64,000 nt of DNA from Candidatus Anaerobiospirillum pullistercoris (GTDB lineage: Bacteria > Pseudomonadota > Gammaproteobacteria > Enterobacterales > Succinivibrionaceae), in the NCBI GenBank assembly GCA_019114785.1, contig DXEV01000168.1, forward strand, positions 2,515 through 66,514, in the 5' to 3' direction. Position 1 is the stretch's first letter; every line of letters starts with the position of its first letter. The position numbers were made by a program, and so were the translations under genes. The notes under the pieces were generated by a model. That model was not told the DNA's origin and searched no databases. It was given only the letters and a program-made list of their open reading frames with translations. This document shows positions 18,408-37,990 of this stretch, in pieces.

Positions 18408-18409
18408 TT

Positions 18410-19009: not shown

Positions 19010-19018
19010 GGAGTCCGC

Positions 19019-20248: not shown

Positions 20249-20317
20249 TGCACACTGCAAGTAGTAGCCATCAGCGATGATGGCAAGGCCACAGCAGTGG
20301 TCACTACTTGATAAGAA

Positions 20318-20360
20318 AGAGGGTGAGCTCTCACAAGGGGCCCACCCTTTTTTGTTTTTG
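20318..20360 (+). terminator. Intrinsic terminator of the nqr operon
   Basis: AGGGTG (20320-20325) pairs with CACCCT (20343-20348). The loop contains the palindrome GTGAGCTCTCAC. TTTTTGTTTTTG follows. Confidence 0.7.
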
Positions 20361-20488
20361 TCTGCTGATGGCGAGAGCCTAGATGTTAAAATTAGTCGAC
20401 CCTAGGGGATGGATTGCCGCTATATTTCGGCTTTTTGCCCCTCCTTTCTTTTTGTCCTTTAGTCCTTGATGGTAGATGAGTCTTTCTC

Positions 20489-23400
20489 ATGGAAACAGCT
20501 GCAAAGATGGCTGAAAAAGCCAACATTAAGCAATTTTTGCAGGATTTTTGCGTCGAACCTCGCACACTCTCTGAGATCATGTTCAAGCTCTTCCATGATG
20601 TCTATCATGAGGATGAAGCTAAAACGAATGAGGCGCTTTCTGTGGTGCTGGAGTGCATTAAAGAGCGCGAGATCTTTGCTGATGTGACCTCCTGTATGGG
20701 CTTTAGAACTCATGACGACAATACGCGCTATCGCTCTCGTCAGACTAAAGGTGATGAAGAGGACAACCAAAACTCTTGGTCGCTCGAAGATTTCCGTGAG
20801 ATCTTAAAGTTCCTGTCCTTTTTCTATGATCTGGCCTCTGGCTCTTTTTCCTACGAGGTCATCAGCCCAGATTGCCTTTACGGTCGAAGCACGACCGCCA
20901 AGCGTAATACGCTCATTGAGCCTAATGGTTTTTCTCTTGTAGATACCGTCTCCTTACGCAATGACAACCCAGATGATGCCTCAAAGTTCTCTGGATTTGT
21001 GCGCTTAACCGATTCTGAGTTTGTGAATGCCATTCGTGCGCGGATTAACCAAAAAGACGAGGCCCGTATGGTGCTGGGGGCACCGCTCTTGGTGGTGGAC
21101 AATAAGCGACATGGCGGTTACGAGAACGGTAAGAGCCCATCAGGTTCTAAGCTGGCCCGCTTTAGCTTAGTGCCTGTGTTCTATTTTTCCCTGACTAAGG
21201 CTAAGTTCACCTCCGAGCGCACCTTGCAAAGTGGCGAGGTTATTGGCCCTTTCCTGAATGAGAGCTTTACCAGCCAGATGCTTAAGCTCTACGATGGCAA
21301 GCGTAGTAAACGTAATATTAAGCAGTTGCTTGCAGGTTTAGAGGCGGAGGCAGCAGCTCTGATCGAAAAGGAAAACGATCTGATGACGGTTTGGGAGGGC
21401 ATAAACCGCATTATCTTCACGTTTTTCTCTGATATCTGCTATGGGGCTGGTGGCGACCTTGCTATTGGCAAGATCGGTAAGTTTCAGAAGCTCACAAATC
21501 TCGATCATCTAAGCTCTTTGCTCGTGAATGCCGCCTTAGTGGCACCTGCAAGTGAGTCCAATTTCTCGATCAATACTTCACGGGACTTTAAGAAGATCCT
21601 CCAAGCCTCAGATGATGAGCTGCGCCAGAGTGCCCTGAGCTGCTTCTTTTCTGATCCTAAGACGGATTCCGTTCGAGCTAACAGCTTTAATGCCTTTGGC
21701 GTAGAGAGTCAGGCGGCTGTGGTCTATGACCTCAACGATTCCTATCCTTGTGATCAGGATCAGGCTCAAGCTGTGCGCTCCATGCTTAAGAATGACCTGA
21801 CGGTGCTGCAAGGCCCACCTGGTACCGGTAAGACCATGACTGTGGCTACGGCTGCTTACAACCACCTGTTGCGCGGGCAAAAGGTGTTGGTGACTTCCTA
21901 TAACCATGCGGCTATCGATGCCTTTTACGAGAAGTCGATCATTGAGTTACCTCAAGGCCGTTTTCGCTTTGCTAAGCTCTTGAAGAATCCTGATAACTCC
22001 ACTGCGCTGACTCTCAAGCAGTTAGCTCAAGATCTGGTGCAGCGCTCGAAGCAGGTGTCGGTGGAGCAGACGCAGGCTTTTGAGCATTTTGCGTCGTCGG
22101 TGGAGCAAAAAGAGCAAGAAATTGCGGGATTAGAGCGTCTTTTGCGTGAGTTTGATGTTGATTTTAATAAGAAGCAGTCTGAGCTCGACGAGCAAATGAT
22201 CTGGTTCTTGCGTCAATATGCCACTAACGCTGCTACTGCCGAGTTCCCTAAAGATGTGCACGAGTTTATTTACAAGCAGCTGCTAGAGCCGCTCTTTGGC
22301 CTGAAAAAGGAAAAGGAGAGCGAGAACTGGTCTTTTCATGTGCCTTTCTATACCGAGGCCAAGCAGCAAAAGCAGTATGAGGATGGGATTAACGATCTGA
22401 AGCAGAAACTAGCAGAGCATTCAGAGCTCGACGATACCTATCATCGTCAAGATGGATGTCTAAAGCATCTGCGCCAAAATGTTTACGATTTCCTCAAGGG
22501 TAACAAGCTTATTTACCGTCTGAAGCATGATCAGCTACTGGATATCTTGGATCGAGTGTTGGAGCTGACTCACTTTAAGTCTGCTCTCTGCCAGCAGAAG
22601 AAGGATTTAGGTCTTTCTGAGCCAGACAATCCTGTGCTGGATTTTGGTGAGATCCATGAGCGTATTGTGAATACACGTGCTCAGATCACCAATGATGTCA
22701 CTCAATGGATTGCTAAGATCTCGCCTCAGGAAGAGTTAGTGCCTGCCAAAGCAGGCGCAGGTGCAGGTGCTGGCGTAGGCGCTGGTGGTGTTGTTGGTGG
22801 TGCTAATGATGCTGAGATGAAGAGCCAATGGAAAGCGCCTGCTGTGACTTCGTTGGCAGTTGTGAGTCTGCTGCGTAATGTGCTCAAGCAAAAGGATGTG
22901 GATGAGCTGCTGCTTAAGCCAAAGTATGCGGCAGCAGTATTGGATTTCTTCCCAGTGAGCACTTGCACCTTGCTGAGTGTGGCTGGATCTTTGCCGCTGC
23001 AAAGCGCCATGTTTGATCTGGTGATTTTTGATGAGGCGGCGCAGTTTAACTTCATTGACGCCATACCGATCATGTTCCGTGCTAAGCGTGTGGCGGTGGT
23101 GGGTGATCCTAAGCAGTTAGCGCAGATTGGTTCTTATTCCCAGTCCTTAGTTCTCAAGATTGCTAAAGCCGTTGGTCTGCCAGATAGTCTGAGATTGCGT
23201 CTTGATTGCAATGCCTCGCTCTACGACTTTGCTAATCACAATTGCGCCACTAATATCAAGAAACAAGAACGTGAGCGTGATGGGGAGCTGCACGAGCTTA
23301 ATGGCCTTGATGGCCTTAATGGCTTTAATGGCAAGGATCTTGGCCAAGGTGAGCTCAAAGAGCTTATCTTGCGTCAGAATCGTCGTTCGGTGGGCGATAT

Positions 23401-24472
23401 TGTCAGCTATATTTCGCGCAGCTTCTATGAGGATCAACTGACATGTAAAACTGAGGTTAACCGTCCACAGTTAGAGGCTGAGCATAGGATCTTGCCAGAT
23501 ATGGAGATGGGCTTGCACTTTGTGCAGGTGCCTCACGATGAGCTGTTTAAAGATCCTCTCTCTCGCTCCTCTTTTTCGACTGTAGAAGCTCAGCGTACAC
23601 TGGAGCTTTTACAGCAGATTGTGGCCAGTGGCTATCGTGGCACTATTGGCGTGATTGCTCCATTTAGACGACAGATTGGTGAGCTGCAAATGCTGGTGCT
23701 CAGAGATCCAACGCTGCGTGCGCTCTACCAAGAGGGGGAGCGCTTGGTGATCGACACAGTGCACCGCTTCCAGGGTCGTGATTGCGATACCATCATCTAC
23801 AACCTCTGCTTAGCTGCAAGCGGTGGTAGCCAGTTTGCTCTTGATGAGAACATCACTAATGTGGCTTTGTCCCGTGCGCGTTATTATCTGTTTGTGGTGG
23901 GAGATCATCTGGCCTTACAGGTGCACGCCAATCAGTCTTTTGTCCGTAATTTGCTGCCATTTGTAGCTTCCCATAATATATCAGGACAAGCCGATGGCGA
24001 GCACAGTGCCGCGTTTGCCGCGTTTGCCGATGTTGCTAAGATCCGCCCATGCTTTGATAGAGTGCGTTTTGATACAGTCTGGGAGCGGATCCTTTTCGAC
24101 CAGCTACGGATTGAGCTGAGAAAAGATGAGTTCTTTGCGCTCTATGATATCCCTCACATGATCTTTACCCAGCTGCCGATTCTGAACTATCGATTAGATA
24201 TGGCCATGATCTGCGGTAATAGGGGCTTAGATATCGAGTGCGATGGCTCTCAGCATTACGTGAATTGGTTTAGCGCTGACAACTTTAAACTGGTGCCCTC
24301 AGATCTCAAACGTGAGGCTGACCTAAGGGCCAATGTTGTGAGTTTTGAGACTATCCGTTTCCGGAATATAGAGATTGAGAACAATCCTGAAGCTTGCGCC
24401 AAGAAGGTGTTAGAGCGCTTTAAGGCGATTGTGCGCGAGGTTCAAGCAGTAGCTCAATCTGCACAGGGATAG
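20489..24472 (+). CDS. SF1B (Upf1/DNA2-like, AAA_11/AAA_12) helicase fused to a C-terminal DUF559/Vsr-like endonuclease domain; unknown 430-aa N-terminal region
   Basis: Walker A is 'LQGPPGTGKT' (GPPGTGKT at nt 21812-21835, from aa 442). Walker B is 'VIFDEAAQ' (DEAAQ at nt 23030-23044, from aa 848). Further helicase motifs are 'VVGDPKQL', 'LRQNRRS', 'TVHRFQGRDCD' and 'NVALSRARYYLFVVGD'. The C-terminus 'GLDIECDGSQHY ... DLKREADLRANVVSFETIRFRN' fits the DUF559/Vsr-type nuclease pattern. About 400 aa of largely helical, partly low-complexity (AGAGAGAGVGAGG) sequence lie between motifs I and II. Confidence 0.85.
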   Translation: METAAKMAEKANIKQFLQDFCVEPRTLSEIMFKLFHDVYHEDEAKTNEALSVVLECIKEREIFADVTSCMGFRTHDDNTRYRSRQTKGDEEDNQNSWSLEDFREILKFLSFFYDLASGSFSYEVISPDCLYGRSTTAKRNTLIEPNGFSLVDTVSLRNDNPDDASKFSGFVRLTDSEFVNAIRARINQKDEARMVLGAPLLVVDNKRHGGYENGKSPSGSKLARFSLVPVFYFSLTKAKFTSERTLQSGEVIGPFLNESFTSQMLKLYDGKRSKRNIKQLLAGLEAEAAALIEKENDLMTVWEGINRIIFTFFSDICYGAGGDLAIGKIGKFQKLTNLDHLSSLLVNAALVAPASESNFSINTSRDFKKILQASDDELRQSALSCFFSDPKTDSVRANSFNAFGVESQAAVVYDLNDSYPCDQDQAQAVRSMLKNDLTVLQGPPGTGKTMTVATAAYNHLLRGQKVLVTSYNHAAIDAFYEKSIIELPQGRFRFAKLLKNPDNSTALTLKQLAQDLVQRSKQVSVEQTQAFEHFASSVEQKEQEIAGLERLLREFDVDFNKKQSELDEQMIWFLRQYATNAATAEFPKDVHEFIYKQLLEPLFGLKKEKESENWSFHVPFYTEAKQQKQYEDGINDLKQKLAEHSELDDTYHRQDGCLKHLRQNVYDFLKGNKLIYRLKHDQLLDILDRVLELTHFKSALCQQKKDLGLSEPDNPVLDFGEIHERIVNTRAQITNDVTQWIAKISPQEELVPAKAGAGAGAGVGAGGVVGGANDAEMKSQWKAPAVTSLAVVSLLRNVLKQKDVDELLLKPKYAAAVLDFFPVSTCTLLSVAGSLPLQSAMFDLVIFDEAAQFNFIDAIPIMFRAKRVAVVGDPKQLAQIGSYSQSLVLKIAKAVGLPDSLRLRLDCNASLYDFANHNCATNIKKQERERDGELHELNGLDGLNGFNGKDLGQGELKELILRQNRRSVGDIVSYISRSFYEDQLTCKTEVNRPQLEAEHRILPDMEMGLHFVQVPHDELFKDPLSRSSFSTVEAQRTLELLQQIVASGYRGTIGVIAPFRRQIGELQMLVLRDPTLRALYQEGERLVIDTVHRFQGRDCDTIIYNLCLAASGGSQFALDENITNVALSRARYYLFVVGDHLALQVHANQSFVRNLLPFVASHNISGQADGEHSAAFAAFADVAKIRPCFDRVRFDTVWERILFDQLRIELRKDEFFALYDIPHMIFTQLPILNYRLDMAMICGNRGLDIECDGSQHYVNWFSADNFKLVPSDLKREADLRANVVSFETIRFRNIEIENNPEACAKKVLERFKAIVREVQAVAQSAQG

Positions 24473-24565: not shown

Positions 24566-26605
24566 ATGGCTATGGAAGAACAAGCCCCAGACGTTGACGC
24601 AAAGGGAGCTCCTGATCAAGGTATAGACTCCAGTGGGCAGGAAAAGAGCGCTTATATTCATGAGGTTGCGCGCAAAGATAAGACGAGCCAAAAGATCAGT
24701 GTTTGGGCATTCTCGCTTATAGTTATCCTTTTCGCTTTTATCTTTGTCGGTTATGTGAGCTGGGTGCTGATAGTTAACTCAAGCCAAACAGATAAGATCC
24801 GTGAAGCCGTTGAGAATCATGCGGATTTGATTGCTTTGGTGACGCAGTCTAAGCAGGATATTGCCCATTTACGTAGTGACAAGCTGGAATTAGAACAAGA
24901 GGTATCTACTTTAACAGCTCAGCGCGACGATCTCGATATCAAGGTGAAAGAGCTTTTGGCCACCAAGCAAGAGATCGATAGCTACTATCAAGAGTATAAG
25001 CTGCGTAAGGACGCTCTGGAAAAGGAATATAGCCTACAAGAGGAAGGCTTAAAGCAGCTTAGTGATAAGCTCGTAGCTACGCAATCTGATGTGACCAAGG
25101 CTGAGGTGGAGCTGGCTGATCTACAAAGTAAGGTAGAGGCTAATCGCCAGTTGGAGCAGCAAAATCGTAAGTTACTCCAAGAGCAAGATAAGTTACAGCG
25201 ACAAAAGAGTCAGCTGGAAACTGAGATAGCTTCGCTGGAGACTACCGTGAAGCAGCATGAGGACACCCTGCGTGCGCTGGCTGCGCGTGAGCAAGAGGTG
25301 GGCTCCATTACTAATCAGCTCAAGGAATTAGTCGCAGGATACGGTGAGCAGGTGACGTCTTTGCTGGATAGCAGCACTAAGCTCAACTCTTTAGCCACAT
25401 CATTGGCGGCCCAAGAGCAAAGTGCCACGTCCTTTGTTAAGCAAGCCGATGCCATGACCAAGCAACTGGATACTATTGGCCAGACTTTAGGGCAGCATGG
25501 CTCCACCATCAATTCTGCTGCTACCAATATTAACGATGCCGTTGCTAAGACCTCTAATGCTATTCATGAGGCCGAGCAGGGACTCAATGCAACGTTTACC
25601 AAGGTTACAGAGTCGTTAGGTCAATCCGAGGAGAAGATGAATGCTGCATTGTCTAGTACATCTAATGCCTTAGAGAGTGCAGGGGATAGTGTGACTAAAG
25701 CAGTGACCCAAGCTACCCAAAGCTTGAGCAATGCTACGGAAAAGGCTGTGACTTCTGTGAACACTGCCGAGAAGAGTGTCACCAGTGCCATCACCAAGAC
25801 TACGACAGCTTTAGCCTCAGCTGAGAAGAGCATAACGGATGTTGCCTCTAATGCAGTGACCCAAGCTACCCAGAGCTTTAGCGCCGCTACGGAAAAGGCA
25901 GTGGCCTCTGTGAATACAGCCGAGAAGAGTGTCATCGATGCTTTCGCTAAGACTACGACTGCGCTGAATTCAGCTGAGCAGAACCTAACGGCGGCTGCCT
26001 CGCAGACCGCAACTGCTATGCAAAGCTTTAGCGCCACTACGGAAAAGGCAGTGACCTCAGTGAACACTGCCGAGAAGAGTGTCACCGATGCCTTCGCTAA
26101 GACTACGACAGCTTTAGCTTCAGCAGAGAAGAACATAACTGATGTTGCCTCTACTGCTGTGACCCAAGCTACCCAGAGCTTTAGCGCCGCTACGGAAAAG
26201 GCAGTAGCCTCTGTGAATACGGCCGAGAAGAGTGTCACCGATACCTTCACCAAGACCACGACTGCGCTGAATTTAGCTGAGCAGAACCTGACGGCTGCAG
26301 CCTCACAGACAGCAATTGCTATGAGTCAAGCCCAAGAAAACGTAAGTTTAGCTTTGACTCAGTCTGTGTCAAATCTCAATGAGCAAGTACAACAGCTTAG
26401 AGCCTCTTTAATGCAGGTTCAGGGCGACTTACAGCAATTTATCCAAGGTCTAGAAACTCAGCAGGCTGGTGCTAATGAGGCTGTGTCATCGCAGTTGTCT
26501 CAGCTGCAAACTCAGCTACAGGAGCTACAGCAGAGCCTTGAGCAGGTGAGCCGTCAGGCCGTGCAGGTGGACGAGGCTACTGTAGCCGTTCCAGAAGCAA
26601 ATTAA
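24566..26605 (+). CDS. Membrane-anchored coiled-coil protein with tandem 50-51-aa repeats
   Basis: One predicted TM ('ISVWAFSLIVILFAFIFVGYVSWVLIV') lies near the N-terminus. About 200 aa of heptad-like K/E/Q/L-rich sequence follow. Then come 4-5 tandem Ala/Thr/Ser-rich repeats ('ATEKAV(T/A)SVNTAEKSV.DAF.KTTTAL.SAE'), then a Q/L-rich tail. AGGAA lies 7 nt upstream of the ATG. I recognise no enzymatic motif. Confidence 0.75.
   Translation: MAMEEQAPDVDAKGAPDQGIDSSGQEKSAYIHEVARKDKTSQKISVWAFSLIVILFAFIFVGYVSWVLIVNSSQTDKIREAVENHADLIALVTQSKQDIAHLRSDKLELEQEVSTLTAQRDDLDIKVKELLATKQEIDSYYQEYKLRKDALEKEYSLQEEGLKQLSDKLVATQSDVTKAEVELADLQSKVEANRQLEQQNRKLLQEQDKLQRQKSQLETEIASLETTVKQHEDTLRALAAREQEVGSITNQLKELVAGYGEQVTSLLDSSTKLNSLATSLAAQEQSATSFVKQADAMTKQLDTIGQTLGQHGSTINSAATNINDAVAKTSNAIHEAEQGLNATFTKVTESLGQSEEKMNAALSSTSNALESAGDSVTKAVTQATQSLSNATEKAVTSVNTAEKSVTSAITKTTTALASAEKSITDVASNAVTQATQSFSAATEKAVASVNTAEKSVIDAFAKTTTALNSAEQNLTAAASQTATAMQSFSATTEKAVTSVNTAEKSVTDAFAKTTTALASAEKNITDVASTAVTQATQSFSAATEKAVASVNTAEKSVTDTFTKTTTALNLAEQNLTAAASQTAIAMSQAQENVSLALTQSVSNLNEQVQQLRASLMQVQGDLQQFIQGLETQQAGANEAVSSQLSQLQTQLQELQQSLEQVSRQAVQVDEATVAVPEAN
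25690..26320. repeat. Tandem 150/153-bp coding repeats (303-bp super-repeat) inside the 24566-26605 gene
   Basis: The (A/T)TEK repeat anchor, keyed on its conserved ACGGAAAAGGC string, recurs with Thr codons at 25736, 25889, 26039 and 26192 (spacings 153, 150, 153 bp). Flanking sequence is near-identical. Confidence 0.85.
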
Positions 26606-26711
26606 GAGTCTTAATCTGCTTCCAGCGCCCGCCCCTCACCAGTCCCAGCTGCTATGGGTGAGACTATAGAAGTGTGAGGAGCGGGTCAGTTGAAGTGGTA
26701 GGAGCGGACTG

Positions 26712-29700
26712 TTAGCTTTCGTCTTTTCCTTCCTCATCTAGGCCTTGCAGCTCAGACATAATGTTAGGGTTACTACCCTCTTTGCGCAGGTACTTCTTAA
26801 CCTCTGGTAAGAGAATATTAAGTTTTTCCTCGACAAAAGAGTGGAACCGCTCTGTAAAGACATAAGATATACGTCTTCCTTTGTTGTAGGGCTCTCGCTG
26901 CTGAATTTGCTGATCGAGTCGTTGGTATGTGCTCAGTGTGTCGTCTAGCAGTTGTTCTATCTCAACAATCTCTGCTTCGTCGATGAAGTTTAGTTCTTCC
27001 TTACGGTAAAGCAGAGAGTACAGCATTACTCTAAGCGACAAGCTGAGTGAACTGCTTCCGATCACTGATTGAGCTTTTATGATTTTTTCACCTAGCTCTG
27101 GGTTATGCACTGTAGCTCGGATTTTATCTTTACTGCTGTCGAGGAGAGCGCGTGCAAACTCAGCCCCCATGCTGAAGTCTTTGGATGACGGGGAAAAGAC
27201 CTGAGGGTGATTTTCGATCAGTAGCAAGGCACCATTCATGTGCCTAGTCTTAAGCGGTGCCATTTGAAGCAGCCATTGACAGCACTTGTTAACCGCTTCC
27301 TTAGAATCAGGCACGAACATACAGTAGCGATGCATTAGCTTGCTCTTGTCTAGAAAATTAGTGCCTATCCTAAAGGCCTGCTCCACGGCTAGAGCTACTG
27401 TATTTGCGATTCCTTCAAGATCAGGGTTGCCAAAAGGCTTAGCTTGAGGGAATGGTAGACATTGGTCGATGTTATCGCAGAATGCTTTAAAGTCACCTTT
27501 TCTGATGTTGGCAAGCAAGAGGGCATGATACATTCTATGGTCTTGCAATAGACGAGCATGGATCTTCTGCTTCATTGTTTGGGAGCCGAATTCACCATTG
27601 TAATACACCAGATCTTGCTGTTTGCGCCCGCCACGGAAAATGATATCCTCTTGCGTTAACTTCTGTTGCCTACGTTGGATTGTAGTAGCTAATTGACCGC
27701 GTGGTTTTAATAATGGTGGGTAGACGCGAGGTAGCTGTGGCAGCTTCTCCGTAAAATCGACTTTTTTGCTTGGATCAAACACTTGCACCTCGCCATGTTG
27801 AGGTAACACACTGCTGACTTCACTGGCGTCAGGATCTGGCTTAATGTGGATTTTGGCGTAGCCAGATAAGGCGCGTTGTTCCACCCAAACTATAACTGGC
27901 TCATCATTATGTGCTTTGCGGCCGGAGGCAAAGGTCAAGGTAGCCTTTTGTACTGATACTGGTGGACTTTGTAAGGTAAAAGGTGTTTCTGTGGCAAGAT
28001 TGATACTATCGTCGTTAAAAGCAGTATCGGTGGAAACGTAGAGCTCAACGTGATCGCTGCCTTTGTTAATAGCTAGTCCTACCTTAGAGCCGGTGATATT
28101 TTGTGTTGGTGCGATGGTGTCATCGTTAATCAGAACCTGCTCTTTGTACTCGGTGTGCTCCTTATTACTGATAACCATTGACAGCTTGGTTAAGCGATCA
28201 AGGTAGGTAGGATGTGTCTGGGGGGCATTGAGGTTGAGGCGTTCTTGGAATAGGAATCCACCTAAAGCCATGTGTTGCCACGCGGTGTTGTGGCGCGATA
28301 ATCTCAATGGTAGAGGATGGGCCTGCATGCTTGCAAGCGAGTCAATGGTTTGGGAATTGCCATAGAGCATTGGGCCAGTAATTAATAGGCACTCGTGTGG
28401 CTCGCTATAGTCTAGATCGTCGAGCTTGTGATCAATCATCACCTTGCGGATCCACTCAGTCATACCCATATAGGCGTCATATGGTATAAATTGCTCAGTA
28501 TCACATCCGTATAACTCATAGAATGATTGAATAGCTAATGAACGAGAGCGCACTTGGGCTCGTTGTTTATCTGTCAATAGCGTATGAATGTGGCACCATT
28601 TATCGATGCTGTGTTTTTGCGGTTGAGGTACACGTAAGACGCGTAAGTGTTCGCTGGTGTCAGATTGTCCCCATGCCTCTGGGAATTGATAGATCACTTG
28701 CGCTATGACCGCATTCTGTAGTTGCTTAAGGATCTGAACGTCGTTCTGCCTTTGAGCAGAAGATAAGCTCTCTATGAGCTTCGTGCTTAAAAACGTGTAA
28801 GCATAGCTGATAGCGTATTGCAAGAAACTGGTACCAATGGCGCAATTCTTATAGACCGATTCACGGCGAATAGGGATGACATAGCTCTGATCAGTGTGTA
28901 GCTTTAGATCATAAGTGGATAGATCGATACTGTCAGGGCCAATGTAGAGCACATGCACGGTAGCAGTATCTTTGTCCTCAGGGGTGTTGCCTTGTGATTC
29001 TTGGGGATGGCTGCTTACATGCTCCACTAGACGCAGCTCTGATTGCGAGCCTGAGTTACTGCTATCTAAACCAGCACGCATAGCCTCAATTTTTGCTCGT
29101 ATTGATTCAGGTGTTTGCTTAGAGTCTTCAGCCTCAAGTTGTTTGTCAAAATCAGCAAAGATATCATTGTTTTGGCTTAGATGCTCGTAAAAGCTAGTAG
29201 CTTCTTGGGATGTGGCCACCTTGGCGCGAGACTCTTCGGCCATATTGGCAATAGATAGGTGAGAGGCAGGCTTAGCTGTACCCATAATAGTGGCAAAGCT
29301 AGGTTCTGGAACAATGTCCTGATCCGAGTAAGCATTGAAGTGGCCGAGCAAGGTAGCAATGGAGCGCCAAAGTAATTGCACCTCAAAGCCAGAGAATGCG
29401 TTGATTAAGGCTTGCTGCTCTGCCTCATCGAAATTATCAGGAATGCAGATGACAAGTTGGCAGTGAGACTGTAGATAAGCCTTATTGGTACGTGTGATTT
29501 TGGCAGGGAGTCTATCCATAGCCTCTGTATCGTTTACAGGGGCGGGCGCTGTATTTGCGGTAGCACGTTTGTGCTCGTCAAAGGTATCGCAGGCTAGCTG
29601 GATGATGTACTTGGCAAGCGAGTTAGCAGCATGTTGCTTATTTTCATCTCGTGGTTGTAGGTGCTTGAGCTGTTGCCAGAGTAAGGCTACTGGGATTCGG

Positions 29701-29897
29701 CTGCTATAGTGGTCATTGTCGATAAGGCCAATACCAGTGCGCTCATACAGTGCATCTTGGCCATACATGTAGAGCTTATTTTCACGGTCTTCAATGACCA
29801 CCGAAGGTAAGTTGCTGTCCTGCATATATACCTTGCCATCAATGACAATGGTGTCAGCAAAGCCGAAAGCACTGATGCTGATAATAGACTTGGCCAT
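26712..29897 (-). CDS. Hsp70/actin-fold protein (NBD plus SBD-beta-like region) with degenerate nucleotide-binding motifs and ~330-aa helical C-terminal domain
   Basis: By-eye alignment to the Hsp70 motifs follows.
- 'IISISAFGFADTIVIDG...NLPSVVIEDRENKLYMYGQDA' corresponds to phosphate-1 plus 'TPSVVAF..G..A'.
- 'LVICIPDNFDEAEQQALINAFSGFEVQLLWRSIATLLGH' corresponds to 'VITVPAYFND.QRQATKDAG.IAGL.V.RIINEPTAAALAY'.
- 'VLYIGPDSIDLSTYDL' corresponds to 'V.DLGGGTFDVSIL'.
- 'LLITGPMLYGN' corresponds to 'ILVGG.TR.P'.
- 'MALGGFLFQERL' corresponds to 'AVA.GAA.QA..L'.
The start is coupled to the upstream gene: a 3-nt gap, with AGGAG 8 nt upstream of the ATG. Confidence 0.6.
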   Translation of the reverse strand: MAKSIISISAFGFADTIVIDGKVYMQDSNLPSVVIEDRENKLYMYGQDALYERTGIGLIDNDHYSSRIPVALLWQQLKHLQPRDENKQHAANSLAKYIIQLACDTFDEHKRATANTAPAPVNDTEAMDRLPAKITRTNKAYLQSHCQLVICIPDNFDEAEQQALINAFSGFEVQLLWRSIATLLGHFNAYSDQDIVPEPSFATIMGTAKPASHLSIANMAEESRAKVATSQEATSFYEHLSQNNDIFADFDKQLEAEDSKQTPESIRAKIEAMRAGLDSSNSGSQSELRLVEHVSSHPQESQGNTPEDKDTATVHVLYIGPDSIDLSTYDLKLHTDQSYVIPIRRESVYKNCAIGTSFLQYAISYAYTFLSTKLIESLSSAQRQNDVQILKQLQNAVIAQVIYQFPEAWGQSDTSEHLRVLRVPQPQKHSIDKWCHIHTLLTDKQRAQVRSRSLAIQSFYELYGCDTEQFIPYDAYMGMTEWIRKVMIDHKLDDLDYSEPHECLLITGPMLYGNSQTIDSLASMQAHPLPLRLSRHNTAWQHMALGGFLFQERLNLNAPQTHPTYLDRLTKLSMVISNKEHTEYKEQVLINDDTIAPTQNITGSKVGLAINKGSDHVELYVSTDTAFNDDSINLATETPFTLQSPPVSVQKATLTFASGRKAHNDEPVIVWVEQRALSGYAKIHIKPDPDASEVSSVLPQHGEVQVFDPSKKVDFTEKLPQLPRVYPPLLKPRGQLATTIQRRQQKLTQEDIIFRGGRKQQDLVYYNGEFGSQTMKQKIHARLLQDHRMYHALLLANIRKGDFKAFCDNIDQCLPFPQAKPFGNPDLEGIANTVALAVEQAFRIGTNFLDKSKLMHRYCMFVPDSKEAVNKCCQWLLQMAPLKTRHMNGALLLIENHPQVFSPSSKDFSMGAEFARALLDSSKDKIRATVHNPELGEKIIKAQSVIGSSSLSLSLRVMLYSLLYRKEELNFIDEAEIVEIEQLLDDTLSTYQRLDQQIQQREPYNKGRRISYVFTERFHSFVEEKLNILLPEVKKYLRKEGSNPNIMSELQGLDEEGKDES

Positions 29898-29900
29898 GTT

Positions 29901-31961
29901 TTAGCTCTCCTGAGTTGTGATGTCGTGGATGATGGAAGAGATCATTACCTCCATGGACTCTAAGCACTGTAACCACTCATCAGGACTGACAGTGATAGTA
30001 CTCATGAAGCATGAAGGGCAGACTTTATTGCGGGTGAGATTGCGGTTATTGGTGCCCGCAATGACTTTGATACCTATGTTGTTGTTGTATTTCCCCGCAT
30101 TATAGGTTTGCTTGTCTGCTTGAGAGAGGGACTGAGGTTTGGTGGTGCAAATGGTGTTAATCTTGTATGTTGGTGCGTTGGCTCTATACGTGACCATGTT
30201 AGCCTCACGCTGCACACTGAAGTTTTTTAGCTCCTTTAAGTCCCAGAACTGCTCAGTACTGACTAAGAAGCAAGGATATATAGGGATGGCAGGGGAACTA
30301 GATGCTCTATTTTCGAGCAGATCTTTAAACATAGCAGGAAGCTTGAGAAGTAAGCTATCACGCTCAGATTCGTCACGTAAAGCACAGTGCATAGAATACA
30401 GTGGAACTAAGACGTGTTGTACGGGCTCCCTTAGATCTTGGATGGAAGAGACCTTGGTGAATAACAAGAAAGATGGGGCCGTTGGCATGAGTTGCAATGT
30501 CACTTGTGGCCATAATTGGGTAATAGTGTTAGGAAGCCCCATGGAGTTGAGCTTTTCTGAGCCGAAAGTGATCACTTCTACAGTGTAAACGGAGCTAGGG
30601 CTTTGAATTAAAAAAGGCCCAGCTTCGCAACCTAACTTGATACGGTGGCCGTTGATCTGCTCGCGGCTAATATGTACGTAGGACTTGCCGATGGTATTGA
30701 TCTGATACCCGTACTGTAAGGGCCATTGAGAGCTATCGGCTAGATCACAGAGTGCTGCATTGATGAGTAGATCGCAGATGTCCTGAAATAGGTTCTGTTG
30801 GCAGTAGATAGTCTTATCCAGATCTCGTTTCTCGTGGATGAGATCGAGGTACATTTGCCAGATCTTTTTGTAGTCAGGATCTTTTTGCAGCACAAAGTTT
30901 GGCTTAGGCAGCGATGGCTGACGAGGCACAGCGGCCAAGGGCGATTTCTGAGAGAGCTCTTGGCAGCGCTGCTTGAAGATATTCATCTGATGAGTGATAG
31001 AGGAGTTAGCCAAAGCGCGGTTGCGGTTGCTCTTATCCTTGATCTCAAGGATGTATTGGGTAGATTTAGTGATACAGCGCTCTAAGAAATCCTTAAGCAC
31101 ACGGTTTTCTAGTAGATTGTAGGTTTCTTCTTTAGCCAGACCTAAGAAACGCATTTTGTTCTTTTGGGCCTTTTCTCGCAGAGTATCGCCTTCGAGGCGC
31201 AATAAGTACTCAAGGCACTTACCGTCCATTGCGTTGATGCGCTCTACAGGCAACAGCTTGCGGGTGTTGATTAGGCTTTTGCGTAGCTTGGCAGCAATAC
31301 GGCTTAGTGGATCTGAGGCCTTTTCGGCGATAGCAAGAATACGTGATCTTGAGATTTGCTCGTCATTACCACAGTACTGACAGATCAGTCGATTAAGATC
31401 GGCAAAGCGCACCATCTGTACATCGGAAAAGTCGCTTGTTTGGTTGTAGTTGATGAGATAGTCAAAAAATGCGAGCCAGCGTTCGAGGTACTGAAAGTAA
31501 TGTGCCTCGGAATTATGGTCATTTTTGTCAGAGCTAACCAGCACAAAGTCGATATTTCCTATGTTTTGCCCATTATAGTGGATAGACAAAGGTAAGGTGA
31601 CTGCCGTTGTGGTTGGTGTGGAAGGCTCTGCCGTAAGCAGAGTTTGCTGAATGCTCTTTTGCAGCTTATAAGGTAAGCTACTGACGGAGATTAAAGATGG
31701 TAGCGTGTAGATGCCAATATTGAGAGCTTCTCCGGCATAGGCGTAGATAAAAGCTTTTTTCTTGAACTGGTAACTTTGGCCATCGCGCTCATAGCAGAGG
31801 GTTAGGGGTAATTCACTGCTATAGCTCTGCTCCCGAGTAGAGATGGGTAATATTAAGTAGGCACAAGTCACTGCACCATGAGTACTTGGGACAATGACTT
31901 TTTTGTCAGTGTCTCGATCGACTTTTAGTAGAGGAAAATCACTGAGAAAACCTGCTGTCAT
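29901..31961 (-). CDS. McrC/DUF2357-like partner protein (nuclease core not recognisable by eye)
   Basis: 'EETYNLLENRVLKDFLERC' matches the conserved (D/E)T.ENRfLK helix of McrC/DUF2357 proteins. 'PNFVLQKDPDYKKIWQMYLDLI' and 'NLFQDICDLLINAAL' resemble the segment that precedes the PD-(D/E)xK core in that family. It lies immediately downstream of the McrB-like gene. Confidence 0.55.
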   Translation of the reverse strand: MTAGFLSDFPLLKVDRDTDKKVIVPSTHGAVTCAYLILPISTREQSYSSELPLTLCYERDGQSYQFKKKAFIYAYAGEALNIGIYTLPSLISVSSLPYKLQKSIQQTLLTAEPSTPTTTAVTLPLSIHYNGQNIGNIDFVLVSSDKNDHNSEAHYFQYLERWLAFFDYLINYNQTSDFSDVQMVRFADLNRLICQYCGNDEQISRSRILAIAEKASDPLSRIAAKLRKSLINTRKLLPVERINAMDGKCLEYLLRLEGDTLREKAQKNKMRFLGLAKEETYNLLENRVLKDFLERCITKSTQYILEIKDKSNRNRALANSSITHQMNIFKQRCQELSQKSPLAAVPRQPSLPKPNFVLQKDPDYKKIWQMYLDLIHEKRDLDKTIYCQQNLFQDICDLLINAALCDLADSSQWPLQYGYQINTIGKSYVHISREQINGHRIKLGCEAGPFLIQSPSSVYTVEVITFGSEKLNSMGLPNTITQLWPQVTLQLMPTAPSFLLFTKVSSIQDLREPVQHVLVPLYSMHCALRDESERDSLLLKLPAMFKDLLENRASSSPAIPIYPCFLVSTEQFWDLKELKNFSVQREANMVTYRANAPTYKINTICTTKPQSLSQADKQTYNAGKYNNNIGIKVIAGTNNRNLTRNKVCPSCFMSTITVSPDEWLQCLESMEVMISSIIHDITTQES

Positions 31962-32054: not shown

Positions 32055-35012
32055 TTAAGCTTGATCAATGGAGCGGCTGACGCCTCGCCATAAGAACATG
32101 CCGTTAGTTTCGTAGTTATCTTTGGCAATCTTAAAGGCTTTGATCAATTCTTCATCATGGGTGTCTCTAATCTCGTTGTCAATAGAGCTCAGACAGGTAT
32201 CGGATTTTTCGTTCTGCTCCAAACCAGCCAGTTTTGGAATGATTTTCATCTCGATTTGATCTGCCAGTGCTATCAAAGCGCTTTCTTCAGGATTAGCTGA
32301 GCTCTTAATGTCAGGGTACATTTGGATGTAATGGGTAATGGAATTGTTGACACGATAGCCAAAGGCTTTGCCCACACTATCCAAGGCGTTATTTAACGTG
32401 TTGATCTTTGAGCGCAGAGCTTCAGGGAAGTTATTTGGGAAGTTTTCTTGGCTACACCAGTCGTTGAAAGTATCGGCATTGACATAGATCTGTGACACTT
32501 TATCGTAGCGGATGTTATCCTCAAAGCTTTTTGGCTTACCGAAGTGCAGCACGTTGGCACGATCTAGCACTTTGTCGGATAGTGAGTATGTCGACTCATC
32601 GTCGTTCATGGTGCCGACAAATACAACATTGGAGCCAACGAAGAAGTCACGGCTATTAAGTTGGGTACCGATAGAGATCTTGCTCTTATCCTCAGGCTGA
32701 TTACGGTCAGTGCCGCGCAATTCCAGTTTTGAGAGGAACTCCGAGAAGTAGTACTCTACGCGGGCAAGGTTCATCTCATCGAGTATCACCATCATCATTG
32801 GAGAGTCGCTGTTGTTGCGGATCTGGTGGAAATAATACAAGGCCTTTACCAGTTCTGTTGGCTGATAGCGCTTCTCGAGGAAGTTATAGAAGCCAAGTAG
32901 GTCGTCCTTAGAGTCCCAACGTGGTTGTACGGCTACGTGCTCGCTGTAGAAATTGAAGAACTTAGCGTACTGCAGTGCCAGTTGGGTTTTACCTGTACCA
33001 CTTAAGCCTGCTAACACAGAGATCGGGTTAATGTTCTGCACCTTAAGTGACGTGTGGAATGCCTTAAGAGTACGAGGGGAATAGAAGAACCCTTCACCCT
33101 TTAAGTAGTCTTGGAATAGCTCTAAAGCGGTACCTTCGTCTTTTACCTCTGTGCCATCGAAGCGCTTTAAAAAATTCTCGATAGCAGCCGGTGTTTGCTC
33201 TAACTCCTCATAGGCAGTATTACTTGCTTCGACGGTGTGGGCACTCTTGGCTTTTTCCTCCAGAGCGGCTACTTCTTGCTGAAGCTGAGTTTTTTGTGCC
33301 GTGAGTTGGCTCTGAGTCGCCAGCTCCGAGGCTAGGTTTTGCATGGATTGCGATAAGGTGTCTTTGAGGTCGTCAAAGGCTTGCCCCAAGGTCTCGCTTA
33401 GCAGATTAGTACTTTGCTGTTCATTGACTTGCGATTGCAGGTCGTCAAGCTCATCCTGCTTTTTGGAGATCTGTCGTTTGAGGTTATCCAACTTGTTATT
33501 GAGCACTCTTTGTTGGTCATTGAGCTCATTCTGTCCGCTGATGCTAAAGATAGCATTGGACAGAGCCTCACTGATCTGTGAGGAGCTGCGCTGTTCATCG
33601 ACTTGAGATTGTAGGTCATCAAGTTCATCTTGCTTTTTGGAGATCTGGCGCTTGAGGTCATCTAACTTGTTATTGAGCACTCTTTGTTGGTCATTGAGCT
33701 CATTCTGTCCGTTGATGCTGGAGATAGCATTAGACAGAGCCTCACTGATCTGCGAAGAGCTGCGCTGTTCATCTAATTGAGCTTTTAGATCGTTAAGTTC
33801 TTTTTGTAGTGCTTTGGCGGCGCTGGCTTGATCGCTCTTAGCTTTTTCCAGAGCAAATACTTCTTGTTTGAGCTGATTTTTTTGCGCCGTAAGCAGGCTT
33901 TGCTCCCCTAGCTCCGAGGCTAGGTTTTGCATGGATTGCGACAGGGTGTCTTTAAGGTCATCGAAGGTTTGACCCAAGGTTTCGCTCAGCAGATTGTTGC
34001 TTTGCTGCTCATTGACTTGAGATTGCAAGTCGTCAAGTTCTTTTTGCTTGGCTGCTACATTATTTTTTAGCTCATTAAGCTGAGAAGTCAGCTTTCTGAA
34101 GTCGTTGGTATCCGACAGCTGCTCAAAAGCAGTGTTTAAGGCGTCTGAGAGCTGATTTTGATTGCTCTTATTGCTGATTTCTTCCTTAAGCTCGCTTAGC
34201 TTCTCTTCTTTTTCCTGTACTTGCTGGGACAGTTGTTCTAGCTTGGAGCTAAGCTCTTGTTCTTGCTGAGCACGGATCGCTTGCTCATTAAAGGAGGTGA
34301 AAGCCTTATTGATGGCGTCGTTGAGCTTACCTGTGTTGAGCTCTTTTTCCTGCTCTATCAGTCGAGCGGCGTTAACATCGTACTGCTTGCGCAGATCCTC
34401 AATCTCTTGTTGCAGTTTTTGGCTTTCAGACTTTAAATTCGAGTTGTCTGCGAGCTCAGAGAACATCTGGTTAAGAGAGTCCTTGGCTATACCACTGCTG
34501 AGCTTCTCGTTGACTTGATCAGAGAGCTCCTTGAGACGCTCTTCCTTGTCATTGATCTTTTGATCGAGCGCGTCTAGCTGTTCTTGCTGGTGGTTATTGA
34601 TAAAGTCCTTTAAGGCTTCACTTTTAGAGAGCTCACGGTCGAGATCCTGCAATTGCTGGAGCTTACCTTGGTACTCGCTGCCTAAGGCATTGAGCTGACC
34701 TTTTACCTGATCAATAGTCTCCTTATTGGCGGCAAATTGCTCATACTCACTTTTGATGCGGGCGGTCTGCTTTTCCACATCTTCCTTGAGACTTTGCTTT
34801 TCCTTTAGCTCAATTTCGAGATTTTGGACTTTTTTGAGCAGATCTTCATGATCGCCTTTAAGTTGTAGTCTGTAATCAAAGTGGGCGTTGATTCGGAAGT
34901 AGAAAAAGGCAAGAATAATGGAAAGGATAACGATAGCAACCGCACCTATTGCAAGGAAAAAGGAAGTGAGGTTGGTGGAAAGTATTGCGGACAAATCAGG
35001 TAAGTCAGACAT
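32055..35012 (-). CDS. McrB-family AAA+ GTPase/ATPase with N-terminal transmembrane anchor and ~600-aa coiled coil
   Basis: The TM segment is 'LTSFFLAIGAVAIVILSIILAFFYF' (aa 15-39). Heptad-rich K/E/Q/L sequence runs to about aa 600. The Walker A is 'LAGLSGTGKTQLALQYAKF' (nt 32985-33008, aa 669). 'QPRWDSKDDLLGFYN', 'MMVILDEMNLARVEYYFSEFLSKLE' and 'VFVGTMNDDESTYSLSDKVLDRANVLHF' form the McrB/AAA_5 signature set. Confidence 0.85.
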   Translation of the reverse strand: MSDLPDLSAILSTNLTSFFLAIGAVAIVILSIILAFFYFRINAHFDYRLQLKGDHEDLLKKVQNLEIELKEKQSLKEDVEKQTARIKSEYEQFAANKETIDQVKGQLNALGSEYQGKLQQLQDLDRELSKSEALKDFINNHQQEQLDALDQKINDKEERLKELSDQVNEKLSSGIAKDSLNQMFSELADNSNLKSESQKLQQEIEDLRKQYDVNAARLIEQEKELNTGKLNDAINKAFTSFNEQAIRAQQEQELSSKLEQLSQQVQEKEEKLSELKEEISNKSNQNQLSDALNTAFEQLSDTNDFRKLTSQLNELKNNVAAKQKELDDLQSQVNEQQSNNLLSETLGQTFDDLKDTLSQSMQNLASELGEQSLLTAQKNQLKQEVFALEKAKSDQASAAKALQKELNDLKAQLDEQRSSSQISEALSNAISSINGQNELNDQQRVLNNKLDDLKRQISKKQDELDDLQSQVDEQRSSSQISEALSNAIFSISGQNELNDQQRVLNNKLDNLKRQISKKQDELDDLQSQVNEQQSTNLLSETLGQAFDDLKDTLSQSMQNLASELATQSQLTAQKTQLQQEVAALEEKAKSAHTVEASNTAYEELEQTPAAIENFLKRFDGTEVKDEGTALELFQDYLKGEGFFYSPRTLKAFHTSLKVQNINPISVLAGLSGTGKTQLALQYAKFFNFYSEHVAVQPRWDSKDDLLGFYNFLEKRYQPTELVKALYYFHQIRNNSDSPMMMVILDEMNLARVEYYFSEFLSKLELRGTDRNQPEDKSKISIGTQLNSRDFFVGSNVVFVGTMNDDESTYSLSDKVLDRANVLHFGKPKSFEDNIRYDKVSQIYVNADTFNDWCSQENFPNNFPEALRSKINTLNNALDSVGKAFGYRVNNSITHYIQMYPDIKSSANPEESALIALADQIEMKIIPKLAGLEQNEKSDTCLSSIDNEIRDTHDEELIKAFKIAKDNYETNGMFLWRGVSRSIDQA
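33290..34025. repeat. Near-identical coding repeats in the coiled-coil region of the McrB-like gene
   Basis: A tandem 174-bp (58-aa) unit occurs twice; GAGCACTCTTTGTTGGTCATTGAGCTCATTCTGTCCG starts at 33501 and 33675. It is flanked by a ~130-bp dispersed repeat; GCTAGGTTTTGCATGGATTGCGA starts at 33331 and 33919, 588 bp apart. Confidence 0.85.
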
Positions 35013-35717
35013 AGCAGTGAGCGTAAGTTGGTTGTAAGCAGCAGCGCGCTGCTGGAGTGGTGTTGGTGTCGGTTAATGCCCGCCCGCTAAGGGTAGCAGG
35101 GCGGTAACAATATGGTAGCTGTTAAAAACTGGTATTGGACTTAAAGTGTGGATCCTTGTTGGAGTAGGTTTCAGGTAAGGACTTTGGATCGTACATGCAG
35201 GCTAAGCGGTGTGCTTTGCCAAGCTGCATTAAAGGGATTTCTAGTCGCTATTTTTCGCCCATTTTAATCCCAATAGAGGTGTTTGTAACTAGTGCTAAGA
35301 CACAGATGTGATAACGGCAAGCTTCAATATATGGGCTGTGTGTTCGGCAAGCGAGCGCTGGCGCGGAACAACATTGAGGTTTTGGCGGTGCCTGTTGGGT
35401 GGCGTGATTTTGGGCGGATGTTATGAGGTTGGGCAATGGTGCAGGGAGTAGTGACCGCGAGGGGCGAGCCTTGTGGTGGCTAGGGGCGGGCGCTTGGACT
35501 GTGTTTTTGGGGTGGGCGCTTGAGCCCAAGGGGCGGGCGCTGTGGCTGGCGCTGAGCCACGGCGGCAGCTTAATTCTTCAAAGCGTGACCTGTGCTCAAC
35601 TATTGCCCTCATTTTTTTGTTACGATAGCTGGTATGTAAGAGAGTCCTCTGGCCTGTGTCTCTTTGTCTTGCCTTGAGGCTACCTCTTGCTGGTTTTCCA
35701 CGTTGAGGAGCAATTTA

Positions 35718-36173
35718 ATGTTAGCTACTTCGCTTGAGCTCGCTACTAAATACGACTATTTAGCCGAAAAGTTCCAGAAGAGTATCGAGTGGTTAAAGAC
35801 CCACGATGCCACCAAGCTGGACAACGGCCGCTATGATATCTGCGACGGTGCCTTTGCCTTAGTCCAACGCTATGCCACCGTTCCTTTTGAGCAGATCCAG
35901 TTCGAGGCCCATAACGACTACTTCGATATCCAGTACTTAGCTCAAGGTATCGAGACCTTTAATGTGTGCTTACGTAAAGACTGCCAAGTCACTAAGGAAG
36001 ATGCTGCTTCTGATATGGTCTATCTGAGCACCCCTGAGGTCTACACCTCCGTGACTTTAAAGCCAGGTGAGTTTGCCATCGTTCCTCCTGAGGAGGGCCA
36101 CCAACCACGTATCGCTTATCAAGGCAAGAGCGTGGATGTGGTTAAGGTGGTAGTCAAAGTTGCTGTAGAATAG
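35718..36173 (+). CDS. nanQ: YhcH/YjgK/YiaL (DUF386) family protein, NanQ-like sialic-acid anomerase/accessory protein
   Basis: ATG at 35718 follows GAGGAG. It is a 151-aa cupin-like protein ('GRYDICDGAFALVQRY', 'HNDYFDIQYL', 'FAIVPPEEGHQP'). It sits next to the nan genes. Confidence 0.75.
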   Translation: MLATSLELATKYDYLAEKFQKSIEWLKTHDATKLDNGRYDICDGAFALVQRYATVPFEQIQFEAHNDYFDIQYLAQGIETFNVCLRKDCQVTKEDAASDMVYLSTPEVYTSVTLKPGEFAIVPPEEGHQPRIAYQGKSVDVVKVVVKVAVE

Positions 36174-36299
36174 GCTAACCAGTTACTACCAGCTGGCTTT
36201 GCTTTCTGTCAGACGTGGAGGTCTGGAAGAAAGCCTATGCTTCTTTTGGTTTTGGGCCGAGTGAGGTCGGTCTGAAATCGTGTGGAAAAGAACAAAAAG

Positions 36300-36335
36300 A
36301 AAGGCGCAAACCCGCAAGGGCCTGCGCCTTTTTCG
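36300..36335 (+). terminator. Intrinsic terminator downstream of nanQ
   Basis: AGGCGCA (36302-36308) pairs with TGCGCCT (36323-36329), with an inner CCC-GCAA-GGG. TTTTT follows. Confidence 0.75.
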
Positions 36336-36347
36336 CTTTAGTAGGAT

Positions 36348-37951: not shown

Positions 37952-37990
37952 CGAAAAATTCCTCTTCTCAGCTGCCTCCAAGTGGTTTTA

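Follow-up and report, generated by a model that had tools for sequence, protein, structure and literature searches.

The closest described relatives of the locus analysed here are the CoCoNuT (coiled-coil nuclease tandem) systems, a McrBC-derived branch of type IV restriction that was defined computationally by Bell, Makarova, Wolf and Koonin (eLife 2024, PMC11090510). In type III-B, a Vsr-like nuclease is fused to CnuH, CnuC combines DUF2357 with an inactivated PD-(D/E)xK domain and an Ig-like sandwich at its N-terminus, CnuA is a coiled-coil protein, and TerY-P is absent; type III-C has a separate phospholipase D (PLD) effector, and type III-A has CnuC and CnuD fused as CnuCD (PMC11090510). 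An NxD motif, not NxxD, defines the branch of McrB GTPases that contains the CoCoNuTs (PMC11090510). The Walker A-like motifs of CnuD are described as degenerate, with ATP hydrolysis predicted to be poor at best and binding of ATP or ADP considered likely, and an RNA ligand is argued from the RNA-binding domains of other CoCoNuT types (PMC11090510). The CoCoNuTs are a large, almost wholly uncharacterised branch of McrBC restriction, and the only experimental support in the literature searched concerns one type II CoCoNuT, which in Pseudomonas is reported to confer protection against RNA phages as well as one DNA phage (bioRxiv 10.64898/2026.04.06.716636). Here we analyse a gene island in a 64,000-nt stretch of Candidatus Anaerobiospirillum pullistercoris DNA (contig DXEV01000168.1; hereafter the window), in particular a minus-strand gene that encodes a protein of 1061 amino acids (aa). 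We consider it very probable that this protein belongs to a type III-B CoCoNuT island as its Hsp70-like subunit, CnuD, and that it works by the recognition or clamp mechanism proposed below. A first-pass annotation had read it as a non-canonical Hsp70 homologue serving an McrBC-like motor as sensor or adaptor, and had noted reports of Hsp70 homologues in some CoCoNuT-type loci. Such homologues are indeed described there, and our results support the interpretation, which had been published before (PMC11090510).

The island agrees with the published type III-B in that cnuD is a separate gene 3' of cnuC and encodes an Hsp70-like nucleotide-binding domain (NBD) and substrate-binding domain (SBD) followed by HEAT-like helices, and in its partners, namely a CnuB composed of a coiled coil and an NxD GTPase, a DUF2357 CnuC in which no nuclease motif is recognised, CnuH, and a CnuA candidate (PMC11090510). 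It differs in its host, which belongs to the Succinivibrionaceae (Gammaproteobacteria), whereas the hosts in the paper are mainly Alphaproteobacteria. It also differs in gene order, with cnuH-cnuA inverted in the clade of the window and convergent with cnuBCD, and in the length of CnuD, which has 1061 aa instead of ~850-950 aa, the excess being due to a disordered stretch inserted into the NBD. In addition, CnuA and CnuB carry transmembrane helices, which are unmentioned for type III-B in the main text of PMC11090510. Type III-A CnuCD and the basal Hsp70-McrB fusions of the NxD clade likewise place an Hsp70-like module on a McrBC core, but they carry it as a fusion with either the McrC N-terminal domain or the GTPase (PMC11090510), whereas here it is free-standing and coupled at the level of translation only. 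Because the III-B arrangement has already been described (PMC11090510), the locus adds a member to a published family without representing a new kind of system, and the known picture of the family is unchanged. What is added is a Succinivibrionaceae III-B clade, the inverted cnuH-cnuA pair, a variable disordered NBD insertion, conserved anchors on CnuA and CnuB, in-frame tandem repeats that lengthen the coiled-coil regions of these two proteins, and the conservation of the cleft. With only five genes, the locus is a compact and clean instance of type III-B in a gut gammaproteobacterium, and a good experimental entry point into this defence family.

The gene and its junction with cnuC are as follows.

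26712-29897, minus strand: cnuD, a 1061-aa open reading frame (ORF) with an ATG start, encoding an Hsp70-like NBD, the beta part of the SBD (SBD-beta) and a helical-repeat tail
29898-29911, minus strand: cnuC-cnuD junction, with AGGAG at 29911-29907, TAA at 29903-29901, a 3-nt AAC spacer, and the cnuD ATG at 29897-29895

The translation has exactly the sequence of HIX57488.1, which is annotated as a 'hypothetical protein' in the Candidatus Anaerobiospirillum pullistercoris metagenome-assembled genome (MAG). The AGGAG lies inside cnuC, 9 nt before the cnuD ATG. The first-pass description of an ATG 3 nt past the stop of an McrC-like gene, with AGGAG within that gene, can be read directly from the junction sequence, and 'upstream' had correctly been taken as higher coordinates, the gene being on the minus strand. 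All peptide strings that it quoted are located in the 1061-aa translation.

aa 8, ISAFGFAD; aa 31, PSVV; aa 151, CIPDNFDEAEQQALINAFSGFEVQLLWRSIATLLGH; aa 317, LYIGPDSIDLSTYDL
aa 504, LLITGPMLYGN; aa 544, ALGGFLFQ
aa 575, VISNKE; aa 588, VLINDDTIAPTQ; aa 652, ATLTFAS; aa 668, VIVWVEQRALSGYAKIHIKP

The AlphaFold2 (AF2) model of CnuD built on 70 family sequences, distant relatives included, has a pLDDT, the predicted value of the local distance difference test, of 83 and a predicted template-modelling (pTM) score of 0.74. A shallower first model on 21 sequences had a mediocre N-terminal half (pLDDT 67). When the 70-sequence model is searched against the PDB with Foldseek, every one of the nine best matches is DnaK (E 3.4e-8 to 8.2e-4, prob 1.00). 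Seven of the nine are full-length or nearly full-length chains, aligned with E 3.4e-8 to 6.4e-8 over 750-940 columns that include the NBD and SBD, and the remaining two are isolated NBDs with TM-scores of 0.49-0.54 normalised to the target. The first model also matched DnaK, as well as the Hsp110 Sse1. Among the viral predicted structures of BFVD, the two best matches are giant-virus Hsp70s, with Megavirus Hsp70 at the top (E 6.3e-8). The Hsp70 fold claimed at first pass is therefore recovered by predicted structure and Foldseek search, with DnaK as best match over the NBD and SBD-beta. In accordance, the order of secondary-structure elements in the model agrees with that of the Hsp70 NBD. At the level of fold, the succession of actin-like two-lobed NBD, linker and beta-sandwich SBD is present in CnuD. 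The predicted model shows CnuD to be composed of an actin/Hsp70-type NBD, an Hsp70-type beta-sandwich SBD, and a helical-repeat tail that replaces the lid, arranged as follows.

29301-29897, minus strand: NBD lobe I, aa 1-199, with the altered phosphate-1 loop ISAFGFAD, the IPDNFDEAEQQ helix, and LLWRSIA
28968-29300, minus strand: insertion, aa 200-310, a variable, disordered, mildly acidic/Ser-rich loop joining lobe I to lobe II
28218-28967, minus strand: NBD lobe II, aa 311-560, with the altered phosphate-2 loop LYIGPDSIDLS (DnaK, VYDLGGGTFDIS), ITGPM, and ALGGFLFQ
27738-28217, minus strand: linker and beta-sandwich, aa 561-720, with PTYLDRLTKLS (DnaK, LLLDVTPLSLG), matching SBD-beta
26712-27737, minus strand: tail, aa 721-1061 and the stop, with a ~50-aa linker, ~290 aa of paired helices, and an acidic tail

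In lobe II, ITGPM corresponds to the adenosine motif and ALGGFLFQ to connect-2. The beta-rich segment and helical tail anticipated at first pass appear in the AF2 model as a beta region at aa ~561-720, with strands at aa 566-707, and a helical region at aa ~771-1061. The tail helices at 773-1051 are predicted with pLDDT >90, and the tail weakly matches armadillo/HEAT/TPR-like repeats in Foldseek (E 0.1-1). The helical lid of Hsp70 (SBD-alpha) is thus replaced in CnuD by helical repeats. The insertion in the NBD has pLDDT <50 at aa 214-286 and 292-306, which predicts disorder, and it is missing or much shortened in many homologues (P0012, P0025, P0030-P0039). Because it is disordered, and missing or short in many homologues, we regard it as a variable loop and not as a domain. 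It had been described as a ~110-aa acidic/Ser-rich insertion; it is present and disordered, but its enrichment is modest, with D+E at 17% against 12.7% overall and S+T at 21% against 13%.

The sequence register between CnuD and Hsp70 was taken from an hhalign comparison of the CnuD family profile (aa 1-720) with a DnaK+HSPA8 mini-profile, the DnaK sequence having been checked against the PDB. The profiles align over 129 columns with P 0.0013 and a probability of 18%. At low stringency, collinearity extends from the first strand as far as the SBD; against the single DnaK sequence the alignment is weaker (E 0.1 and 0.016). The similarity foreseen at first pass therefore persists in a profile-profile check, though weakly, and the motifs fall in the proposed register.

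GISAFGxxD in the CnuD family, GIDLGTTNS in DnaK
IPDNFDEAEQQ in the CnuD family, VPAYFNDAQRQ in DnaK
LLWR(S/P)(I/V)AA in the CnuD family, IINEPTAA in DnaK
(L)YIGPDSIDLS in the CnuD family, VYDLGGGTFDIS in DnaK (YIGPDSIDLS aligned with YDLGGGTFDIS)
(C/T)GP in the CnuD family, VGG in DnaK
AxGAxxYGxR in the CnuD family, AIGAAVQG in DnaK
PTYLDxLxxLS in the CnuD family, LLLDVTPLSLG in DnaK

Residues D8, K70, E171, D194, G196-G198, T199, and D201 of DnaK are catalytic or phosphate-binding residues. In particular, D8, E171, and D194 of Hsp70 position Mg-ATP and the attacking water. In the register above, these residues correspond to the following.

DnaK D8 to CnuD S9; E171 to R178; D194 to Y318
DnaK G197-G198 to CnuD P321-D322 (G196-G198 to G320-P321-D322)
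DnaK T199 to CnuD S323; D201 to CnuD D325

The catalytic and phosphate-binding set of the Hsp70 enzyme is not kept in CnuD, and the family consensus reads GxSAFGxxD, LLWRPVAA, and YLGPDxxE. Family alignment and hhalign register agree that the ATP-binding loops are replaced, as the first-pass annotation had stated. Judged from sequence, the residues by which Hsp70 binds Mg-ATP and splits it have been replaced in CnuD.

CnuD shares with DnaK the two-lobed NBD, the hydrophobic/acidic linker, the order leading to a beta-sandwich SBD, and remnants of the five actin-fold motifs. It differs from DnaK in the replacement of D8, E171, and D194, in the exchange of the lid for ~290 aa of helical repeats, and in subdomain IB, which is largely replaced by a long helix at aa 85-114. 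Identity to DnaK is ~10% in structural alignments, CnuD has no Pfam HSP70 match, and no J-protein or nucleotide-exchange-factor partner is encoded in the island. Hsp110/Sse1 and Ssz1 of the ribosome-associated complex (RAC) are likewise Hsp70 folds outside the normal chaperone cycle, hydrolysing ATP weakly or not at all and serving as scaffolds or exchange factors; however, their glycine-rich phosphate loops are kept and they bind ATP, whereas both loops are altered in CnuD.

A word-indexed protein search returned 39 relatives of CnuD, all metagenomic or from Anaerobiospirillum, and its repetition with alignments A1 and A2 added one protein, P0147. When 1.84 billion representatives were searched exhaustively with HMMER, 96 clusters were obtained at E <=1e-3, most of them 800-1000 aa long and 15-20% identical to CnuD; the distant relatives were found by this search alone. 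A scan of genome contigs returned one locus, from an Anaerobiospirillum MAG. Among 63 diverse members, P153, W177, R178, R344, G508, G546, and G679 are invariant. The 68 positions conserved in at least 75% of these members include 45 in the NBD, 18 in the SBD-beta, 3 in the tail, and none in the insertion. R67, R553, D15, and D322 are near-invariant or conserved; D15 and D322 line the presumed cleft, and R67 and R553 may lie there too. The conservation demonstrates, for the cleft as placed by the register, an altered site under strong purifying selection and not a decaying one. The loops had been called 'degenerate'; the Hsp70 residues are indeed replaced, but the word misleads, since no part of the family is more conserved than these altered loops.

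The three conserved tail positions are L962, R965, and G1041. The last of these is near-invariant family-wide and lies in YLRKEGSNPNIM, a conserved C-terminal motif at aa ~1035-1052 (26742-26795) that is followed by a short acidic tail. Six remote members (P0077, P0095, P0102, P0103, P0107, and P0129) keep an Asp at the position of DnaK D194 (for example VVLDFG, AVFDFQ) and are partly without the W-R or SAFG consensus. They may be intermediates from true Hsp70s to CnuD, or they may represent other CoCoNuT types.

The four partner genes are as follows.

20489-24472, plus strand: cnuH, a 1327-aa UPF1/DNA2-like superfamily 1 (SF1) helicase with a C-terminal DUF559 Vsr-like nuclease domain
24566-26605, plus strand: cnuA candidate, 679 aa, with one transmembrane helix, a long helical repeat-rich region, and no Pfam domain
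29901-31961, minus strand: cnuC, 686 aa, McrC-like, with DUF2357 (Pfam PF09823, E 1.5e-12)
32055-35012, minus strand: cnuB, 985 aa, with an N-terminal transmembrane helix, a ~600-aa coiled coil, and a McrB-like AAA_5 GTPase

Next to cnuC, cnuD is a separate gene for an Hsp70-like NBD/SBD with helical repeats. CnuB combines the McrB-like GTPase (AAA_5, E 7e-8; Walker A GLSGTGKT at aa 669) with SMC/Rad50-type coiled-coil matches over aa ~50-620, and PADLOC matches it to the candidate model PDC-M26A (E 6.5e-45). Its signature, GTMNDDES at aa 802, is of the NxD type with an E next to the motif on its 3' side in the gene, the one-residue deletion being read from the motif pattern, and GTMN(D/E)DE is kept in CnuB of all five related loci tested. 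CnuC has DUF2357, and no conserved D...(D/E)xK triad is found in its C-terminal domain in an alignment of six CnuC homologues. Searches of the PDB by phmmer with CnuB and CnuC matched neither McrB nor McrC, so the calls of NxD and of a dead nuclease come from inspecting the motifs. In CnuH, the SF1 helicase (AAA_11 and AAA_12, E 1e-22 and 1e-25) is fused directly to the Vsr-like nuclease (DUF559, aa 1228-1310, E 5.6e-5), and the CnuH homologues of three related loci (L005-L007) carry DUF559/MTES_1575. CnuH is the only candidate for an active nuclease in the island. The CnuA candidate stands at the right position, has a repeat-rich sequence of helical type, and carries a transmembrane helix in addition. 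No ORFs for the TerY-P triad (VWA, phosphatase, kinase) were found between 14 kb and 42 kb of the window. Type III-C was considered and rejected, as the helicase itself carries the nuclease, which is Vsr-like, and there is no PLD protein.

The transmembrane helices are at aa 19-37 of CnuB (34900-34958) and aa 52-70 of CnuA (24719-24775), and such helices have Kyte-Doolittle 19-residue means of 2.3-3.6. A single N-terminal transmembrane-like helix is found on both CnuA and CnuB in the window and in all five loci tested (L001, L002, L005-L007), whereas CnuC, CnuD, and CnuH have none.

The five-gene set recurs in seven related loci (L001-L007), and the short contig of an eighth (L008) keeps cnuB-cnuC-cnuD. 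The order H-A-B-C-D is collinear in L001, from A. thomasii, and in L005, L006, and L007, where CnuD is ~17% identical. L002-L004 share the arrangement of the window, in which cnuH-cnuA and cnuB-C-D converge, with the cnuA candidate after cnuH. A positional CnuA homologue of ~500 aa lies between cnuH and cnuB in L001 and L005-L007. The cnuC and cnuD genes overlap by 4 nt in L006, L007, and L008 and by 11 nt in L001, and are separated by 1-4 nt in L002 and L005. Homologues of CnuB, CnuC, and CnuH are detected by tblastn in every locus where the contig allows. In all loci cnuD stands directly after cnuC and is accompanied by cnuB; cnuH and cnuA are present too in every case where the contig is long enough. 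The linkage to McrC-like and McrB-like genes proposed at first pass is kept in every related locus examined, down to ~17% identity. In tblastn comparisons with the distant loci, identity is ~40% for the CnuB GTPase, ~30% for CnuC, and ~27% for CnuH. For CnuD, only the first 184 aa are matched in L005-L007, and in L005 only (25%); CnuA is undetected by tblastn in these loci. CnuD and CnuA are the fastest-diverging components between loci.

In the mechanism that we propose, CnuD would be made stoichiometrically with CnuC and would join the CnuB-CnuC GTPase complex. It would act there as a non-hydrolysing ligand-recognition or clamp subunit, using a repurposed cleft and the beta-sandwich, and not as an ATP-driven foldase. 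The ligand would be RNA (PMC11090510) or an unfolded polypeptide. Binding of the target would be passed via the presumably nuclease-dead CnuC to the CnuB GTPase ring, and the Vsr-like nuclease of the CnuH helicase would perform the cleavage. Given the single N-terminal transmembrane helix on both CnuA and CnuB, a tether to the inner membrane is probable for the assembly, through these helices and the long coiled coils of the two proteins, putative in the case of CnuA. The conserved anchors are a concrete prediction of the site of action, absent from the main text of PMC11090510. The sensor or adaptor role of CnuD is one that we infer, as does the literature.

Several points weigh against assigning CnuD to the Hsp70 fold and against the proposed mechanism. 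CnuD has no match in Pfam, NCBIfam, PADLOC, or phmmer searches of the PDB, and Pfam HSP70 (PF00012) gives no match for CnuD, 21 close relatives (E up to 10), or 10 distant relatives (E up to 0.1), only noise being returned. A profile search of the PDB finds Hsp70 chains only at E 0.08-0.13, which is not significant; these sole coherent sub-threshold sequence matches are the 'putative heat shock protein' chains 4gni, 5mb9, 6sr6, and 7z3n, which we take to be Ssz1/RAC. The hhalign probability is only 18%, and the TM-scores to DnaK are moderate, at 0.38-0.54. Since the sequence searches are weak or empty, the Hsp70 fold assignment rests on the predicted structure. The residue equivalences come from the sequence register and the secondary-structure order, not from three-dimensional coordinates, and the partner of DnaK K70 is uncertain; it may be R67, or R67 may pair with R75/R76 instead. 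A physical contact between CnuC and CnuD would follow only from gene adjacency and the III-A fusion (PMC11090510). Finally, the literature searched holds no experimental work on CnuD or type III-B as regards ligand, nucleotide binding, or phage defence.

As for the ligand, a doubtful but credible alternative is that the Hsp70-like module recognises protein and not RNA, for example an unfolded or injected phage polypeptide that binds in the SBD-beta groove as the trigger. The SBD-beta is kept and holds 18 of the 68 conserved positions, and the linker motif YLD..L..LS resembles LLDVTPLSLG of Hsp70. The divergence of CnuD and CnuA, the most diverged components, is as expected of a target-facing subunit, and the complex appears to be membrane-tethered. 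The published argument favours RNA by analogy with other types (PMC11090510), but this argument is weaker for III-B because the nuclease is Vsr-like, not HEPN, and there is no direct evidence for any ligand. We hold as rather unlikely a further proposal, in which the cleft would be a repurposed, strongly selected pocket (W177-R178, R344, R67, R553, D15, and D322), and what it senses would be a peptide, a nucleotide signal, or the end of a nucleic acid. The whole machine would hang from the inner membrane by the transmembrane helices and the long coiled coils, variable in length, of CnuA and CnuB, and its pseudo-Hsp70 would clamp phage material near the site of entry and license CnuH.

It is improbable that CnuD is instead a working ATP-driven Hsp70 chaperone with an unconventional catalytic set, which remodels or loads CnuB-CnuC-CnuH or unfolds phage proteins. 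The architecture of the NBD is kept, as are the positions of all five actin-fold motifs, with high conservation; D325 (DnaK D201) and S323 (DnaK T199) are conservative; and binding of a nucleotide is conceivable for the residues along the presumed cleft, among them the conserved D15 and D322 and several invariant arginines, in line with the view that binding of ATP or ADP is likely (PMC11090510). However, the Mg/water residues D8, E171, and D194 are now Ser, Arg, and Tyr; Phe, Pro, and Asp stand in the glycine-rich phosphate loops; the helical lid is replaced; and the island has no J-domain or GrpE-like partner.

It is highly improbable that the island is non-immune. It would then be a coiled-coil/GTPase machine anchored in the membrane that serves housekeeping or a mobile element, with CnuD as a structural pseudo-enzyme. 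The literature searched holds no experimentally tested type III-B system, two subunits carry transmembrane anchors, and PADLOC recognises CnuB alone, and by a 'candidate' model. On the other side stand the McrB/McrC ancestry, the helicase-nuclease fusion, the patchy distribution, the varying flanks, and a GC content below that of the flanks. Moreover, the neighbours of such islands include a Cas12a CRISPR-Cas locus, integrases, and other defence-type genes, and a type II CoCoNuT does defend (bioRxiv 10.64898/2026.04.06.716636).

A generic actin/MreB/ParM-like or sugar-kinase-like fold of the N-terminal domain is so improbable that we reject it. In its favour, MreB, BeeR, and MamK are among the weaker Foldseek matches (E 0.07-0.6); against it, Hsp70 matches better by 6-7 orders of magnitude, the Hsp70 alignments reach the linker and a beta-sandwich SBD that actin, MreB, and kinases lack, and the register fits Hsp70-specific motifs.

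With CnuD read as a non-hydrolysing Hsp70-like subunit, the questions that it raises about such proteins in immunity are open to mutagenesis, because a good model, ~96 clusters, and defined invariant residues are at hand.

The island is flanked in the window (14348-20248 and 35664-42366) by the nqrA-F operon and a sialic-acid utilisation cluster with genes for YhcH/DUF386, a ROK kinase, an SSF transporter, a NanA-like DHDPS, and NanE. The GC content of cnuB, cnuC, and cnuD is 0.455-0.462, compared with ~0.49 in the flanks, which fits an origin by horizontal transfer. Neither an integrase nor a tRNA that could mark an integration site was found in the window; tblastn searches of plasmids with CnuD and the distant relative P0059 gave no match. 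The flanks of homologous islands differ from genome to genome. Near the island, L005 has a Cas12a-Cas1-Cas2 locus between two rve transposase genes of identical length (12810-22083), L001 has AAA-ATPase_like/PDDEXK_9 and SLFN_AlbA_2 genes (12836-22628), and L007 (19853-20422) and L008 (5860-7299) have phage-type integrases.

Promoter and terminator scans gave nothing above background level. The stops of cnuA and cnuD face each other across a 106-bp gap that contains one hairpin.

26626-26688: GC-rich hairpin between the convergent cnuA and cnuD, with a minimum free energy of -37.9 kcal/mol and z -2.66

This hairpin is probably a bidirectional terminator shared by cnuA and cnuD. In-frame tandem repeats are found within cnuA (25695-26294; 153 bp x 3.9, also readable as 303 bp x 1.9) and within cnuB (33416-33800; 174 bp x 2.2), which suggests recent changes in the length of the coiled coil of CnuB and the putative one of CnuA.

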